The notes under the pieces were generated by a model. The model saw only the letters and a program-made list of their open reading frames with translations, searched no databases and was not told where the DNA came from. From the NCBI GenBank assembly GCA_035314985.1, contig DATFYP010000101.1, forward strand, positions 1 through 59,486: a DNA stretch of 59,486 nt. Reading direction: 5' to 3'. The translations under genes were made by a program, and so were the position numbers. Source of the stretch: Nitrososphaerales archaeon (GTDB lineage: Archaea > Thermoproteota > Nitrososphaeria > Nitrososphaerales > Gagatemarchaeaceae). Shown one piece after another: positions 2,206 through 55,106 of the stretch (its first letter is position 1; each line of letters opens with the position of its first letter).

Positions 2206-5058
2206 GTGTTCCAGCTCTTCTCCCCTCCCCTGGTCAAGGCGCTGAACGAGAAGGGGTTCGCCTCGCCTACGGACCCTCAGATGAAGCTGGTCCCGCTCGT
2301 GATTCAAGGGAAGAACTCCCTGCTAATGGCCCCGACGGGGACCGGAAAGACCGAGGCGGCCCTGCTCCCGATCCTCGACAGGATGGTCAGGGAGGGGCTC
2401 TCAAGAGAGAAGGGGACGAAACTCCTGTACATCACGCCGCTCAGGGCGCTGAACCGGGACATGCTCGAGAGGATGCAGTGGTGGTGCAAGAGGTTCGACA
2501 TCAGGCTCGGGGTCAGGCACGGCGACAGCACCCAGGCGGAGCGCACGAACATGAGTTTCGCCCCTCCCGACATCCTCATCACGACCCCCGAGACCCTGCA
2601 GATCCTGCTGGTAGGGAGGCGGATTCGGCAGAGTCTGTCGAAGCTCAGGTGGGTCGTGGTAGACGAAGTGCACGAACTCGCCGAAGACAAGAGGGGGAGC
2701 CAGCTGAGCGTGGGGCTGGAGCGCCTGAGGGACGCGGTCGGGGGAGAGTTCCAGACGATAGGGCTCTCCGCCACGGTCGGGTCCCCGGAGAGAATCGCTC
2801 AGTTCCTCGTGGGGAGCGGGAGACAGTGCGAGGTGGTGAGGGTCCCGGTGGAGAAAACCCTCTCGCTCAGGGTGATCTCGCCTAAGGCGACCGCCCATGA
2901 CAAGGAATTCGCCGAGGCGATCTACTCGTATCCTGAGGTGGCCGCGAGACTGAGGGTCATCAGGGAGGCGGTCGAGAAGTACAAGTCGGTGCTCATCTTC
3001 ACCAACACGCGGTCGGAGGCCGAGGCCCTGGCCAGCAGGTTCAGGGTCTGGGACCCGGAGTTCCCGATTGGAATTCACCACAGCTCTCTGTCGAAGGCCA
3101 CAAGGGAGGCGGTCGAAAGGAACCTAAAGGACGGGAAGCTCCTCGGGGTCATCTGCACAAGCAGCCTGGAGTTGGGCATCGACATCGGGTTCCTCGAGTA
3201 CGTCATTCAATACAACTCTCCCAGGCAGGTGACACGGCTGATTCAGAGGGTGGGACGGAGCGGGCACAGGGTAGGCGAGGTCTCAAACGGGCTGATCGTG
3301 ACCCAGGACTCAGACGACACGCTCGAGGCGGCAGTCCTGTGCAGGAAGTCGGTGCGCGGCGAGCTCGAGCCCCTGGTTCCCGTTTCATCCCCCTACGACG
3401 TGGCAATCCACCAGGTAGCGGGGCTCCTGATAGAGCAGCCCACCTGGAACTTCGCCGACCTTGCGGCCCTGCTGAGGAGGAGCGACGCGTATTCCGGGAT
3501 GGACGACCTGAGGCTCAGGAGGGTCCTGACCTACATGCGGGAGCGCTATCCGAGGCTGGCCTACTACGGGGAGTCCGACGGCAGGGTCTCACGGGCGCGA
3601 GATGTGAAGCCGCTGTTCCAGTACTACTTTGACAACCTCTCGATGATTCCCGACGAAAAACAGTACCTGGTGATCGAGGGGGAGAACTTCGTCGGTGTCC
3701 TCGACGAGGCGTTCGTGTCCGAATACGGCGAGGTGGGGGTCAAGTTCGTGGAGGCTGGGCGCTGCTGGAAGGTGGAGCAGATCTACGGGAACAAGGTGTA
3801 CGTCAAGGCGGAGGAGGACCCCACAGGCGCAGTCCCGAACTGGGTCGGAGACGAGATCCCGGTTCCGCTCGAAGTCGCAGCGGAGGTCGGTGCGCTGAGG
3901 CGGAAGTACGCCGAGGCCATCGAGAAAGGGAAGGGGGAGGCGTTCCTCGAGGCGACGATTGGGGAGTACCCTCTATCCAAGGAGACGCTGAGGGAGGCGC
4001 TGAAAGAGGTCGCCGAACAGCACGCCGCGAAGCTTCCGATACCTTCGGAGAGGCTCGTCACCGTCGAGAGGTGGGACAGGTACGTCATAATCCAGGCGGC
4101 CTTCGGCCACAAGGTGAACCGTCTACTGGCGAGGGTGCTGGGGCACATGATTTCGGAGAAGATCGGGCTGTCGGTCGCCGTACACCAGGACCCGTACAGG
4201 ATGGTCATAGAGGCGGATGTTGCGCCCTCGGTGGTCGTCTCAATGCTGACGGGCCTGAAGGGAATCGACCTCCGTGCGGCGACAGAGAAGGCGGTTGAGA
4301 GGTCTGGGATATTCAAGCGAAGGCTGATTCACGCGGGGAAGAAGTGCGGCGCGATAGCCAAGGACGCGGACTACGCCAGCGTTTCGATTTCCGGCATTGT
4401 CGAGGCCCTTCGGGACACGCCGGTCTACGACGAGGCCATGGACATGATCTTCCACGATGACCTGGACGTGCCCGGAGCAGCCGCAGTCGTGGAGAGGATC
4501 GCGAAGGGTGAGGTCGAGGTGAAGCTGGTCGATTACGAGGGGCTCTCTCCCATCGCGAGGATCGGGGTCGAAGAGATCAGCAGGAGGGGGGAGATCGTGT
4601 CCCCGGAACGCCTCAGGGCCCTCCTCAGGCAGTCTACGAGCGCGCGAATCCTCGACACGTTCATGGTCGCGGTCTGCACGAATTGCTGGAACTATCTCGA
4701 GTTGAAGCGGGTCGGCGACCTGGAGGGGGTTGAGAAGTGCAGCTTCTGCGGCCATGAGGCCATCGGACTGTCGACCGACTCCTACGAGAACGTCTTCTCT
4801 CTTGCGATGAAGGCCAGGAGCAGGACGGACATCCGCGGGAGGAACCTCAAGCTCGTCGAAGCGGTCAAGAAGTCGGCGGAGATGAGGAAGGAGTACGGGC
4901 ACTCCTTCGACATGCTGATGGCGGGGAGAGGGGTGAGAATCGCGGACGCTGCCAACCTGGCCGCGAAGATGAGGAAGGAAGGGAAAGACGTGATCGACTC
5001 GATAATGGAAGGGGAGCGCGAGGCCCTAAGGAGGCGCTACTTCTTTGGACCCGCGTGA
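2206..5058 (+). CDS. Lhr-type (COG1201) SF2 DEAD/DEAH helicase, paralogue 1, with C-terminal Zn-ribbon
   Basis: 950 aa. Motif I is APTGTGKTEAALLP and motif II is VVDEVHEL, followed by SATVG, TSSLELGIDIG and QRVGRSGHR. The C-terminus carries CTNCWN...CSFCGH. GTG start. Confidence 0.85.
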   Translation: MFQLFSPPLVKALNEKGFASPTDPQMKLVPLVIQGKNSLLMAPTGTGKTEAALLPILDRMVREGLSREKGTKLLYITPLRALNRDMLERMQWWCKRFDIRLGVRHGDSTQAERTNMSFAPPDILITTPETLQILLVGRRIRQSLSKLRWVVVDEVHELAEDKRGSQLSVGLERLRDAVGGEFQTIGLSATVGSPERIAQFLVGSGRQCEVVRVPVEKTLSLRVISPKATAHDKEFAEAIYSYPEVAARLRVIREAVEKYKSVLIFTNTRSEAEALASRFRVWDPEFPIGIHHSSLSKATREAVERNLKDGKLLGVICTSSLELGIDIGFLEYVIQYNSPRQVTRLIQRVGRSGHRVGEVSNGLIVTQDSDDTLEAAVLCRKSVRGELEPLVPVSSPYDVAIHQVAGLLIEQPTWNFADLAALLRRSDAYSGMDDLRLRRVLTYMRERYPRLAYYGESDGRVSRARDVKPLFQYYFDNLSMIPDEKQYLVIEGENFVGVLDEAFVSEYGEVGVKFVEAGRCWKVEQIYGNKVYVKAEEDPTGAVPNWVGDEIPVPLEVAAEVGALRRKYAEAIEKGKGEAFLEATIGEYPLSKETLREALKEVAEQHAAKLPIPSERLVTVERWDRYVIIQAAFGHKVNRLLARVLGHMISEKIGLSVAVHQDPYRMVIEADVAPSVVVSMLTGLKGIDLRAATEKAVERSGIFKRRLIHAGKKCGAIAKDADYASVSISGIVEALRDTPVYDEAMDMIFHDDLDVPGAAAVVERIAKGEVEVKLVDYEGLSPIARIGVEEISRRGEIVSPERLRALLRQSTSARILDTFMVAVCTNCWNYLELKRVGDLEGVEKCSFCGHEAIGLSTDSYENVFSLAMKARSRTDIRGRNLKLVEAVKKSAEMRKEYGHSFDMLMAGRGVRIADAANLAAKMRKEGKDVIDSIMEGEREALRRRYFFGPA

Positions 5059-5583
5059 GAGGATCATGGTCATCAGGGTCTTTTCGTCGACCTCGGCCCT
5101 CGTCCTCCATCCGATGTGAAGCAAGGACCTGTCGTCCTGTTCCAGGTAGCCTCTCTTGACGTAGCGATCCAGGGAGTACTCCACCCTCCACTTCGGGAAC
5201 TTGTCGCGGAGGAAGTGCTCCACCTCTCGGCGGGCCGCCCTTCCCTGCTTCGAGTTGACGAATGCGATGGTGGACGCGAGGACCGCCAGGTCGTCTATCC
5301 TGATTCCCGAAGTCTCAGCCTCGGAAATCGACGGAGGCTCCTTGAACCGAAGGAGGAAGCGCGAGGTGTCGTCCGTGCCGTCGGGGCCCTTGACCTCGAA
5401 GACTTCCATCCCCAGGGGCGAAACGTCCTCGGAGAGCACTTCGACTATCTGTTTGTACTCCCGCCCCAGGTGCCGCTTGAGCTCCCAGCCTTTGACGCCG
5501 GGGTTCCTTCCCCTCTGGAGGACAAGGACCTGGAAGGCCTTCCTCACCTTCCGCTCGAGCAGCGCCTTGTCGGCGGTCTCCAT
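5026..5583 (-). CDS. tandem winged-helix kite-like subunit (ScpB / MAGE-Nse3-like)
   Basis: 185 aa from the internal ATG (METADK...), which overlaps the upstream stop as ATGA. There are two WH-like repeats. The C-terminal YVKRGYLEQ...HIGWRTRAEVDEKTLMTMI resembles the MAGE homology domain tail. Confidence 0.6.
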   Translation of the reverse strand: METADKALLERKVRKAFQVLVLQRGRNPGVKGWELKRHLGREYKQIVEVLSEDVSPLGMEVFEVKGPDGTDDTSRFLLRFKEPPSISEAETSGIRIDDLAVLASTIAFVNSKQGRAARREVEHFLRDKFPKWRVEYSLDRYVKRGYLEQDDRSLLHIGWRTRAEVDEKTLMTMILSRGSKEVAPP

Positions 5584-17603: not shown

Positions 17604-17766
17604 CGCAGGGGGTGGGACTTTCGCCCGAGGGAACTCCCACTCAAGTGGAGCTTTCCCCTGGGATTCGAACCCACGAGTCCCGTGAGAGACACAGGCTTAG
17701 CAAGCACACGCCGGTTGACTGCGCCTTACCAGGCTCCCCGTCACGATGACTCTAGGCTACCCCTGC
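17604..17766 (-). tRNA. tRNA-Ser(GCU) with three introns
   Basis: Removing 17737-17754 (18 nt, D-arm), 17706-17718 (13 nt, position 29/30) and 17613-17658 (46 nt, T-arm) gives an 86-nt class II tRNA. Its parts are acceptor GCAGGGG/CCCCTGC, D-arm GCCGAGCCTGGTAAGGC, anticodon arm CAGGC-TTGCTAA-GCCTG, variable arm GTCTC-TCAC-GGGAC and T-arm GTGGG-TTCGAAT-CCCAC. Confidence 0.85.
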
Positions 17767-17805: not shown

Positions 17806-18131
17806 AAGTGGCGGCGGCTCCCCCGGAGTTCACCATCGGTCTCCGCCCCCGTCTCGCCAGACGGAGAATCCCCCACGTAGACGAAGCAGCGTGGCCACGT
17901 CACCATAGGGCTGCTCCCTCCCGGACCTCGCCCGATTCGGCAATTAGTGGTCAGGACCTCTCCTTCGAGAGGACTGCCTCTCATGACCGCCCGCCACGGC
18001 GTGAGTTCGTCTCCTCCGCCCGACGCAGGTTGCGGGGATGGTGGCTTTACCCGAAGGTTGCTGGCCTCTGCATGTTGCCGGTTTCAGCCTATCGGGAGAC
18101 GGCAACCCTCCCTGCCCTACCCGCCGCCAGT
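17806..18131 (-). ncRNA. signal recognition particle RNA (7S RNA), ends +/-5 nt
   Basis: The termini pair (GGCGGCGG with CCGCCGCC). The helix-8 signature GGUCCGGGAGGGAGCAGCC is close to the universal GGUCCGGAAGGAAGCAGCC. A helix-6-like hairpin CUCUC-GAAG-GAGAG is present. The ~326-nt length fits archaeal SRP RNA. An A/T box TTAATTA lies about 25 nt upstream. Confidence 0.85.
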
Positions 18132-30712: not shown

Positions 30713-30835
30713 GATGTATTCGAAAAATCGACGTCATTTGCCCGAACTTAAACGTTCTGCAGAGACAATCAGGGAAGATGAAGTAATTGGGATGGGTGCC
30801 GGCATCGGAAGCTTCGCGAGAGCTCTCGCATCTCA

Positions 30836-31375
30836 CTAACACCCCGACGACGCGCGGTTTGACTTCTCCCCCTCTTTCGAGTCTGGGGTCGGAACGAGTC
30901 CAGGTCGGACCCACGCGCTATGGCCGGCTGAAGAAGGCCGAGGTTCTGAAGGTGATTTAACCGTTTTGGCGTATCGCTTGTAAGAGCCCACGATCTTTCG
31001 CATTCTATCCGCTTTGGTCGGATTCGTGAAGCCGACTAGCCTTTGATAAGCCTCAAGACTTTGACCCCTGAGAATCACCAAAACGTAGCTGTCCCTTCGG
31101 ACCTTTCCTTCTCCCTCGCGATGGTCGAGGTAAATCGTTGGCTCGATGTTCGCCTTGCGTAGGATGACCCTTACTGTGTTCAGCAGTGGCAGGTCAGTGT
31201 TCGATATCACAACCATTCTGATATTGGGATACATCATAGAAGAGTGCTGAGCCTGGTGATAGTACAGTCTGGGTCCGCCCTCTCCATCCGCAAACCCACG
31301 GACATACTTCAGTTGCTCAGCCACTGGCCATGTCAGCGGCTCGGGATATGTTTCTTCGGCGTCGACTTTGGTCAT
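30836..31375 (-). CDS. free-standing single-motif LAGLIDADG endonuclease-like protein
   Basis: LKYVRGFADGEGGP is the LAGLIDADG motif. It is about 180 aa from MTKVD. GC looks lower than the surroundings by eye. Confidence 0.6.
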   Translation of the reverse strand: MTKVDAEETYPEPLTWPVAEQLKYVRGFADGEGGPRLYYHQAQHSSMMYPNIRMVVISNTDLPLLNTVRVILRKANIEPTIYLDHREGEGKVRRDSYVLVILRGQSLEAYQRLVGFTNPTKADRMRKIVGSYKRYAKTVKSPSEPRPSSAGHSAWVRPGLVPTPDSKEGEKSNRASSGC

Positions 31376-33185: not shown

Positions 33186-33357
33186 GGGGACGTAGCCCAG
33201 CTAGGTGAGGGCGGGTGTACAACTTCACCCTGGAAAGGCAGGGCGACAGGCTCCAGTGGTCAAACAACAAGTTTGATGACACGGCAGCGTGGATGATTAG
33301 GCATTGGAGCTGCACGGGGAAACCTGTAGACCGTCGGTTCAAATCCGACCGTCCCCA
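33186..33357 (+). tRNA. tRNA-Trp(CCA) with two introns
   Basis: Removing 33214-33245 (32 nt, at the D-arm/anticodon-stem junction) and 33257-33321 (65 nt, canonical 37/38) gives a 75-nt tRNA. Its parts are acceptor GGGGACG/CGTCCCC, D-arm GCCC-AGCTAGGTGA-GGGC, anticodon arm ACAGG-CTCCAGA-CCTGT and T-arm GTCGG-TTCAAAT-CCGAC. An A/T box ccataaagcc lies about 30 nt upstream. Confidence 0.85.
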
Positions 33358-37022: not shown

Positions 37023-37064
37023 CCCAGAACCCATAACTACCGCAGCCACCCACGCAACCAACGT

Positions 37065-37203
37065 GGGGTCGTCGGCTAGGCTTTGAGTGCGGTCATTCGC
37101 AGTCAAGGGGCTAGTCTGGTCTAGGCTTCAAACCACGCGGAAGCGGCCTTGGGATCTCCTACAAGAACGCTTGAGACCCCCGGTTCAAATCCGGGCGACC
37201 CCA
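37065..37203 (+). tRNA. tRNA-Pro(UGG) with three introns
   Basis: Removing 37073-37107 (35 nt, position 8/9 to 15/16, ambiguous because GGCTAG is duplicated), 37132-37145 (14 nt, position 29/30) and 37155-37168 (14 nt, 37/38 or 38/39) gives a 76-nt tRNA. Its parts are acceptor GGGGTCG/CGACCCC, D-arm GGCT-AGTCTGGTCTA-GGCT, anticodon arm CAAGC-CTTGGGA-GCTTG and T-arm CCCGG-TTCAAAT-CCGGG. Confidence 0.85.
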
Positions 37204-37221: not shown

Positions 37222-37761
37222 CTAGCCGGACATTCCGCGAATGACGAACCTCAAGATGGGGATGCGATTGGCCCTAATGAAACCCAAATCAGATTTGGAA
37301 ATCACTGGCCTGCCATAGTAATTCACTACCGCGAGGGCAAGTATTCGGCCCGGGGACAATTTGCGCCACCTAAGGGCATCTGTCAATTGATCTTCTAGTG
37401 TGTCACCACTCGCACCTTGGAGGCAATGACTGCCGTATGTCTTCACTTCCACAGCCAGGGTTTCGTTAGTGGTGACAATTTCGACCAGCCTGAAACGTCT
37501 CAGGGACGGAAATACATCAAGCCCGAAATCTTCAGCCCTGATGAGCAGGGGGTGGTCTCTGATCTTGTACCCAAGTAACCCAAGCCACCCCTTGACTAGC
37601 CCTTCGCCAAAGGCCCCCCTCACATGCTTGGACGCCGACATGGTAGGATTGCCGACAAAGCTGCCCCGTCTGGAAAGGTCGATTGCCTCGCTTTTGGTTA
37701 TCCTGACGTTTCGGGATTCCATCACGAGTTGGTCGACAACTCCAAATTTTAGCGATTGCAA
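37222..37761 (-). CDS. PD-(D/E)xK-type nuclease-like hypothetical protein (Hjc/YraN-like core)
   Basis: RGAFGEGLVKGWLGLLGYKI ... FGLDVF ... LAVEVKTYG fits a GxxxE...D...E-x-K nuclease core. The gene begins 19 nt after tRNA-Pro, and GC is visibly lower than the flanks. Confidence 0.5.
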   Translation of the reverse strand: MQSLKFGVVDQLVMESRNVRITKSEAIDLSRRGSFVGNPTMSASKHVRGAFGEGLVKGWLGLLGYKIRDHPLLIRAEDFGLDVFPSLRRFRLVEIVTTNETLAVEVKTYGSHCLQGASGDTLEDQLTDALRWRKLSPGRILALAVVNYYGRPVISKSDLGFIRANRIPILRFVIRGMSG

Positions 37762-54807: not shown

Positions 54808-55106
54808 AAGACGCGAGTCGGTGGACGGGCCACGGGGACCTCCTGGGGAAGTTCCTCCCTCACGGCAGGACGCGCGGCGCCACGAGGCGCAGCCGGAGAC
54901 GGCTGGCTCCAGAACAGAAACGACACCCGCCCCATCAAGGGCGATGATAGGGAAACCTTGAGGTCGGTGGGGAGCGGGATGAAACGGCTGACCCGCGCGG
55001 AGCAAGGCCGAACGTGGTCGATGATAGGCCTGCGGGAGACCAAGGTGGGCCGCTTAGCTGAATCCCGTCTAGAACAGGAGGAGGACTACGGCCGAATACG
55101 CGTCAG
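54808..55106 (+). ncRNA. rnpB: RNase P RNA (type A-like), ends +/-5 nt
   Basis: P1 is GACGCG/CGCGTC. The CR-I-like segment GGGGAAGTTCCTCC pairs with the 3' ACAGGAGGAGGACT as P4. AGAACAGAAACG, GGGATGAAACGG and CGGAGCAAGGCCGAA (compare E. coli CGGAGCAAGGCCAAA) are also present. An A/T box gttattt lies about 25 nt upstream. Confidence 0.75.

Follow-up and report, generated by a model that had tools for sequence, protein, structure and literature searches.

The window (the whole stretch of DNA analysed, 59,486 nucleotides) carries, at 37065-37203 on the forward strand, a predicted tRNA-Pro(UGG) gene of 139 nt that is interrupted by three introns (full sequence GGGGTCGTCGGCTAGGCTTTGAGTGCGGTCATTCGCAGTCAAGGGGCTAGTCTGGTCTAGGCTTCAAACCACGCGGAAGCGGCCTTGGGATCTCCTACAAGAACGCTTGAGACCCCCGGTTCAAATCCGGGCGACCCCA). 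The source organism is known from metagenomes only: a near-identical contig is found in ENA ERZ27315281, JGI 3300004152 and a Logan assembly, with the tRNA gene identical in each. The GC content of the window is 59-62%; the nearest species-representative genome compared shows 75-80% DNA identity, and homologues of the neighbouring 3-methyladenine glycosylase are named Nitrososphaerales or Thaumarchaeota archaeon. The parts of the gene, and the element that precedes it, are as follows.

37025-37039, forward strand: promoter-like element CAGAACCCATAACTA, conserved upstream of orthologues
37065-37079, forward strand: exon 1, tRNA positions 1-15, GGGGTCGTCGGCTAG; acceptor 5′ strand, U8, C9, D-stem 5′ strand, A14, G15
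37080-37114, forward strand: intron 1, 35 nt, after position 15 (D-loop, 15/16)
37115-37131, forward strand: exon 2, positions 16-29, from spliced alignment to the intronless L023 gene; remaining D-loop, D-stem 3′ strand, U26, C27-A29 of the anticodon stem
37132-37145, forward strand: intron 2, 14 nt, ACCACGCGGAAGCG, position 29/30
37146-37153, forward strand: exon 3, positions 30-37, GCCTTGGG; holds the anticodon UGG (34-36)
37154-37167, forward strand: intron 3, 14 nt, ATCTCCTACAAGAA, canonical position 37/38
37168-37203, forward strand: exon 4, positions 38-73; C38, anticodon stem 3′ strand, variable loop, T-arm, acceptor 3′ strand, discriminator A73

Removal of the introns restores a canonical cloverleaf, which ARAGORN calls tRNA-Pro(tgg). 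The predicted spliced product is 76 nt long, with C9 and C38 (GGGGTCGTCGGCTAGTCTGGTCTAGGCTTCAAGCCTTGGGCGCTTGAGACCCCCGGTTCAAATCCGGGCGACCCCA), and its junctions (marked here and below by hyphens) are GGCUAG-UCUGG and UUCAA-GCCUUGGG-CGCUUG, the latter two also given as UUCAA-GCC and UUGGG-CGC. Base for base, this product is the same as an uninterrupted 76-nt gene at locus L023 (AcS1-13), which scores 55.7 bits against the Rfam tRNA model RF00005 (gathering score 29). CCA is not encoded in the window gene, where TCC comes next, but is encoded in some orthologues.

The element upstream includes a TATA-like ATAACTA at 37033-37039 and ends (CAGAAYCCATAACTA) 26 nt before the tRNA 5′ end. Most of 47 orthologues have the same element, or an ATATAA/GTATAATA variant, at an equal distance upstream, and the AT content upstream of the orthologues peaks at -32 to -26. 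From this conservation we infer that the element would be an archaeal TATA-type promoter.

Genes for an MFS transporter, aIF-1A and the glycosylase lie upstream; downstream is a 166-aa ORF on the other strand, followed by ribonucleotide reductase genes. The tRNA gene is free of overlapping ORFs of 80 aa or longer, and a protein-coding role for the locus was rejected on that ground. The 166-aa ORF (37222-37722, reverse strand) comes directly after the tRNA gene, in convergent orientation. The window and the related locus L005 have this ORF; L006 does not, and there a reductase-like gene directly follows the tRNA. Its only match in Pfam was a non-significant one to XisH (E 0.3). This region is possibly an insertion or deletion beside the tRNA gene.

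Standard tools miss the gene: ARAGORN found no tRNA over the whole 59-kb window, and Rfam gave no tRNA match to the unspliced gene at gathering or E-value thresholds. Such failure is expected for a tRNA gene with several introns. The Rfam matches in the window are archaeal RNase P RNA (54813-55101) and archaeal SRP RNA (17812-18126), and they mark the DNA as archaeal. A related locus, L033, offers a second kind of error: its tRNA-Pro(UGG) gene at 5207-5297, with a single 29/30 intron, is called tRNA-Val(cac) by ARAGORN, a misannotation that arises from the non-canonical intron.

Orthologues of the gene bear directly on where its introns begin and end. Three are syntenic, lying downstream of the glycosylase gene: L005 (82% identity to the glycosylase protein) has all three introns, of 34, 14 and 13 nt; L006 (74%) lacks intron 1; and L007 (69%) has neither intron 1 nor intron 2, its canonical intron being 35 nt long. 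Exon junctions are identical in all three. When 185,579 species-representative genomes were scanned with the 3′ exon, 46 loci matched; one is labelled ‘bacterium’, and the others are titled Thaumarchaeota/Nitrososphaerota or unclassified archaeal MAGs. Among the relatives, AcS1-13, AcS1-27, SubAcS15-15 and palsa-1368 belong to the Gagatemarchaeaceae, formerly Group I.1c, which are non-ammonia-oxidising archaea of acid soils with a GC content of 54-62% (PMC10640624). The window is tentatively assigned to the same family.

Spliced alignment was performed on 47 other full-length tRNA-Pro genes with anticodon UGG or CGG (L017 was parsed by hand). Introns are distributed as follows: none (1 gene), 37/38 only (17), 29/30 only (2), 22/23 only (2), 29/30 and 37/38 (6), 15/16 and 37/38 (3), 15/16 and 29/30 (4) and all three (13). 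Every combination of the 15/16, 29/30 and 37/38 introns is seen among the 47 genes, with exon junctions constant, and each intron is absent, with the same exon junction, from a number of them: that at 15/16 from 27 genes, that at 29/30 from 22 and that at 37/38 from eight. In genes without intron 1, exons 1 and 2 are contiguous and join as GGCTAG-TCTGG; of the 26 orthologues bearing the 29/30 intron, 25 fix its boundary without ambiguity. The exons differ by 0-1 base in nearly all 47 genes (exon 1 is identical in every orthologue except L035, which differs by one base), whereas the introns are almost all distinct in sequence.

The fourth site, 22/23, is used in two tRNA-Pro(CGG) genes (L035 2314-2408 and L036 219-314), each with one intron of 19-20 nt, in which the central helix is paired 4/4 and the inner helix has 4 bp. 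Among the orthologues (loci L005-L054), those with the canonical intron only have one of 19-35 nt, mostly 29-35, and most of these introns have the strict splice motif, with outer helices of 7 bp and inner helices of 4-7 bp. Where the canonical intron stands beside a 29/30 or 15/16 intron it is mostly 13-16 nt and of a loop type; a minority are 19-37 nt.

Archaeal tRNA introns are recognised through a bulge-helix-bulge, in which a 4-bp central helix lies between two 3-nt bulges bearing the splice sites (PMC4090602). We took a register rule from the canonical 37/38 case, by which four exon bases that stop two bases short of the 5′ cut must pair with four intron bases that stop two bases short of the 3′ cut. 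In the window gene this rule gives a 4/4 central helix in exact register for all three introns. Intron 1 forms a relaxed HBh′ motif, in which G10-U13 pairs with intron GGCT (GGCU/GGCU, with two G-U pairs), followed by a bulge (A14 G15-G) and a 6-bp inner helix (CUUUGA/UCAAGG); there is no outer helix. In intron 2, exon CUUC (24-27) pairs with intron GAAG, and a 3-bp outer helix joins A21-G23 to C31-U33. In intron 3, C32-G35 (CUUG) pairs with intron CAAG between the bulges GG-A and AA-C, and the anticodon stem serves as the outer helix. In both 14-nt introns the inner helix gives way to a loop of 5 nt behind a single pair, a 1-bp inner ‘helix’. None of the three introns has the strict hBHBh′ motif, which excludes only the strict subtype, as required by alpha4 and alpha′2 enzymes, and not the intron family.

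The register rule by itself is unspecific: it allows 175 candidate segments in the 139 nt. We took every possible set of up to three segments allowed by the rule and ranked the resulting products by ARAGORN score. Introns 2 and 3, as (67,14) and (89,14), are present in all the products at the top, while several D-loop alternatives are left for intron 1; the orthologues settle the choice. The rule is thus decisive only together with the tRNA constraint and the orthologues. For intron 1 it selects k=15, L=35, and none of the seven other equivalent positions gives a central helix. GGCTAG is duplicated, in the exon at 37074-37079 and at the intron end at 37109-37114, as the earlier note had pointed out. 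Since GGCU pairs with itself through G-U, the duplication amounts to the central helix plus two bulge bases.

That note had also given the gene its coordinates and its intron lengths (35, 14 and 14 nt), all of which are right, and had placed the second intron at 29/30, where register and orthologue boundary agree. Its 5′ intron, set in the 8-15 region, stands as a 35-nt intron but with the boundary after 15 and not at 8/9; for the third intron it offered 37/38 or 38/39, and the former holds. Both corrections follow from register and from intron-lacking orthologues. Its 76-nt product, which deletions at offsets 8, 32 and 41 reproduce exactly and which ARAGORN also calls tRNA-Pro(tgg), is accordingly in error at two bases: G9 and A38 should be C9 and C38. 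Boundaries at 8/9, 29/30 and 38/39, with G9 and A38 in the mature tRNA, do score slightly higher in ARAGORN (121.1 against 116.5 for the C9/C38 product), and a purine at position 9, the more usual state in tRNAs, is what they supply. However, the sequence is GGGGTCGTCGGCTAGTCTGG, with C9, in genes without the 5′ intron and CCTTGGGCGCTTG, with C38, in those without the anticodon-loop intron; cutting after position 8 leaves no 4-bp central helix, and the CUUG/CAAG helix of the third intron is in register only at 37/38. We regard these earlier boundaries as barely credible and retain 15/16, 29/30 and 37/38.

Conservation of pairing among the orthologues falls at the positions that the register rule defines. 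At 29/30 the central helix has pairs in 88/88 cells, and sliding the partner by 1-2 bases lowers the count to 46-56/88. The 23 distinct introns at this site conserve a single block, GAAG (GGAG in one of them), which lies opposite exon CUUC. At 37/38 the central helix is paired in 142/144 cells over 36 distinct orthologous introns (53-70/144 when slid), and the intron tracks the anticodon: genes with anticodon CGG always have G opposite C34, those with UGG have A or G. At 15/16 the central helix is paired in 65/72 cells, its outermost pair being G-U or a mismatch in orthologues. The 15/16 inner helix is paired in 71/72 cells over pairs 1-4 and in 94/108 over six pairs (34-62/108 when slid), and pairs 2-4 each occur as three to four pair types, indicating compensatory change. 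Composition-matched shuffled introns reach a 4/4 in-register central helix in 6.4%, 5.5% and 3.2% of cases for introns 1, 2 and 3, so that the joint chance of all three, as the product of these figures, is ∼1e-4: three in-register helices are more than chance.

Folding each junction as a bulge-helix-bulge had been suggested as a check on the gene, and the outcome is divided. Helices of the relaxed motif stand in register at all three junctions, but single-sequence minimum-free-energy folds of the precursor and of every partly spliced form contain no bulge-helix-bulge conformations, and at intron 1 the energy fold prefers a shifted helix (10-15 with 47-52). We treat such folds as uninformative for protein-recognised motifs, yet their failure is a weakness, and we use them as evidence neither way.

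The shifted helix does lend something to the idea that introns 2 and 3 alone are of the endonuclease type, and that the 35-nt D-loop insertion is cut by another nuclease at the 10-15/47-52 helix, or is retained; so do the missing outer helix and the weak pair at G10. Against it, the geometry of the D-loop site, with a 3-nt bulge (A14 G15-N) and a covarying inner helix, fits the HBh′ form cut by (alpha-beta)2 enzymes (PMC4090602), a retained insertion would destroy the D-arm, and orthologues without the insertion have the exact junction that the register predicts. Separate handling of the D-loop insertion seems to us exceedingly improbable. Self-splicing was also rejected for these introns: no Rfam intron family was found in the region, and the catalytic core of a group I or group II intron would need hundreds of nucleotides, where the introns here have 35, 14 and 14.

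The failure of standard tools and of energy-based folding to show the gene and its splice motifs is also what would be seen in a decaying tRNA pseudogene, disrupted by insertions and not spliced into a working tRNA. Yet the exons are identical to those of species that share only 62-82% identity in the glycosylase and ∼75-80% in the surrounding DNA, and the introns have diverged freely outside their pairing positions. Furthermore, 13 other genes, spread over about a dozen genomes, have the three-intron form, and the promoter-like element is retained. Decay of this kind is highly improbable. We read the locus as a putatively functional tRNA-Pro(UGG) gene of an uncultured soil archaeon, in four exons with three endonuclease-type introns, and attach to this reading a probability of about 0.93. 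As the earlier note had proposed from the sequence, this is a 139-nt tRNA-Pro(UGG) gene with three introns, and the proposal is borne out by the identity of the product with an intronless orthologue, the precise presence or absence of each intron across 47 related genes, the relaxed bulge-helix-bulge helices in correct register at each junction and the promoter-like element conserved upstream.

Ordinary archaeal tRNA splicing is the best-supported account of how the transcript is processed, with no new mechanism involved. Transcription would start from the TATA-like element ∼30 nt upstream, and the tRNA ends would be trimmed (an archaeal RNase P RNA gene sits in the same window). The archaeal tRNA splicing endonuclease would then cut the three relaxed bulge-helix-bulge motifs, in each of which a 4-bp helix, formed by bases at the end of the exon with bases towards the 3′ end of the intron, would set both splice sites two bases beyond. 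An RNA ligase would join the exons, and CCA would presumably be added, since it is not encoded. Transcription, the enzymes named and the order of intron removal are what we infer. Thaumarchaeota have the (alpha-beta)2 (alpha2beta2) type of endonuclease, which accepts relaxed motifs (PMC4090602, PMC4033280), and many non-canonical tRNA introns (PMC8450103). C32 and U33 are needed both in the outer helix of intron 2 (A21-G23 with C31-U33) and in the central helix of intron 3 (C32-G35), so that the full motifs of these two introns cannot coexist. Stepwise intron removal is likely, and the authors of tRNAscan-SE 2.0 describe the same situation for closely spaced introns (PMC8450103).

It is established that archaeal tRNA genes can have as many as three introns, at non-canonical sites (PMC4033280, PMC8450103, PMC4090602). 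Known non-canonical sites include 22/23 and 29/30, and the stated maximum is three introns per gene, in Thermoproteales (PMC4033280, PMC3218864); site 15/16 is absent from the list of intron sites that a review quotes, which is not a primary catalogue. In a 2021 census of 217 archaeal genomes with tRNAscan-SE 2.0, which includes a Thaumarchaeota-specific intron model, all 16 three-intron genes were in Thermoproteales, and the 11 thaumarchaeal genomes had 39 two-intron genes and no three-intron gene (PMC8450103, Table S7). The closest parallel is the tRNA-Pro(UGG) of the Thermoproteales species Pyrobaculum islandicum, with introns at 25/26, 37/38 and 56/57 (Sugahara et al. 2007, as cited in PMC4090602). 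As reported there, it is the same isoacceptor, also with one canonical and two non-canonical introns that are short and of relaxed motif; the non-canonical sites differ, being 15/16 and 29/30 here and 25/26 and 56/57 in P. islandicum. Processing by an (alpha-beta)2 endonuclease is presumed for the window gene as for the three-intron genes of Thermoproteales. In contrast to those hyperthermophilic crenarchaea, the host here is of a soil lineage related to Thaumarchaeota, with relatives predicted to be mesophilic.

The thaumarchaeal two-intron genes belong to the same phylum-level lineage and share with the window gene the non-canonical intron types and the presumed endonuclease type, but three introns are found here and in 13 further related genes. 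With the predicted gene, the range of three-intron tRNAs thus comes to include a thaumarchaeal soil lineage, in which they are common. Soil habitat and many non-canonical and multiple tRNA introns are also features of Atabeyarchaeia and Freyarchaeia, Asgard archaea of wetland soil in which 92-95% of tRNA genes have introns and more than half have several (PMC11291895); these are of a different phylum, and the likeness is to their published description. A eukaryotic tRNA gene with three ectopic introns and bulge-helix-bulge-like junctions is similar in outline, although the enzyme complex and the intron sites differ there.

Three tRNA genes were recognised in the window (Pro, Trp and Ser), each with two or three introns, about eight in total. 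The tRNA-Trp(CCA) gene (33186-33357, forward strand) is 172 nt long and has two introns. The first, in the D-loop, is 33 nt (33203-33235, after gene position 17) and is missing in L037, L048 and L051; the second, at the canonical position, is 65 nt (33257-33321) and has UGAUGA-like box C motifs. Introns of tRNA-Trp have a median length of 65 nt and nest a box C/D guide RNA (PMC4090602). Two weak matches to sR53 box C/D RNA lie elsewhere on the forward strand (4528-4587 and 4878-4940; 23 and 20 bits against a gathering score of 49), ∼350 nt apart.

A tRNA-Ser(GCU) candidate (17604-17766, reverse strand) adjoins the SRP RNA gene and has three candidate introns: one in the D-loop (∼17727-17749), one of 13 nt at 29/30 (17706-17718) and one of 46 nt in the T-arm (17618-17663), the D-loop and T-arm boundaries being approximate. 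The claim that a tRNA-Ser intron shares the 29/30 site of the tRNA-Pro gene agrees with the best parse of this candidate. A by-eye comparison of the 29/30 introns of the two genes found no similarity beyond the exon-pairing bases, and transposition of an intron between the two sites was rejected for that reason.

The 5S rRNA gene (30794-30931, reverse strand) is 138 nt long and scores 34.3 bits, against an Rfam gathering score of 38. A precise 17-nt insertion, ACTCGAAAGAGGGGGAG, at ∼30866-30882 interrupts its conserved CAG-AAGU motif. The insertion is shared with L031 and L015 and is absent from 10 orthologous 5S genes; of those scored, three reach 61-73 bits. It fits the bulge-helix-bulge register, with exon CCCC.AG paired to intron GGGG.AG (each followed by its splice site) and an inner helix CUC/GAG that closes a GAAA loop; L031 has a compensatory pair, TCCC with GGGA. 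With this fit to the motif, the insertion may represent a mini-intron of the 5S rRNA gene. Searching the full-text literature turned up no paper that describes an archaeal 5S rRNA intron.

These observations raise the prospect, which we advance tentatively and at slightly under even odds, that this Group I.1c-related soil lineage is in its own burst of gain and loss of endonuclease introns, Thermoproteales-like and reaching beyond tRNAs. It would account for the ∼eight introns in three tRNA genes of the window, for the tRNA-Pro genes of related species, which have every combination of three sites and a fourth at 22/23, and for the 17-nt 5S insertion, in splice-motif register and absent from most orthologues. 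Beyond tRNA-Pro and tRNA-Trp, a census of the related loci found so few tRNA genes that it gives no intron rate for the lineage as a whole.

The tRNA genes described here are of a kind that escapes standard finders. ARAGORN's miss in the window and its miscall in L033 imply that genomes of this acid-soil and peat lineage, which is abundant, look tRNA-poor without intron-aware tools. With invariant exons and fixed intron sites, the set of 48 orthologues forms a natural series of intron gains and losses, useful for the question of how archaeal tRNA introns spread and for the minimal needs of the relaxed splice motif. The 5S insertion and the multi-intron tRNA-Trp and tRNA-Ser genes suggest that the whole lineage may deserve dedicated study.
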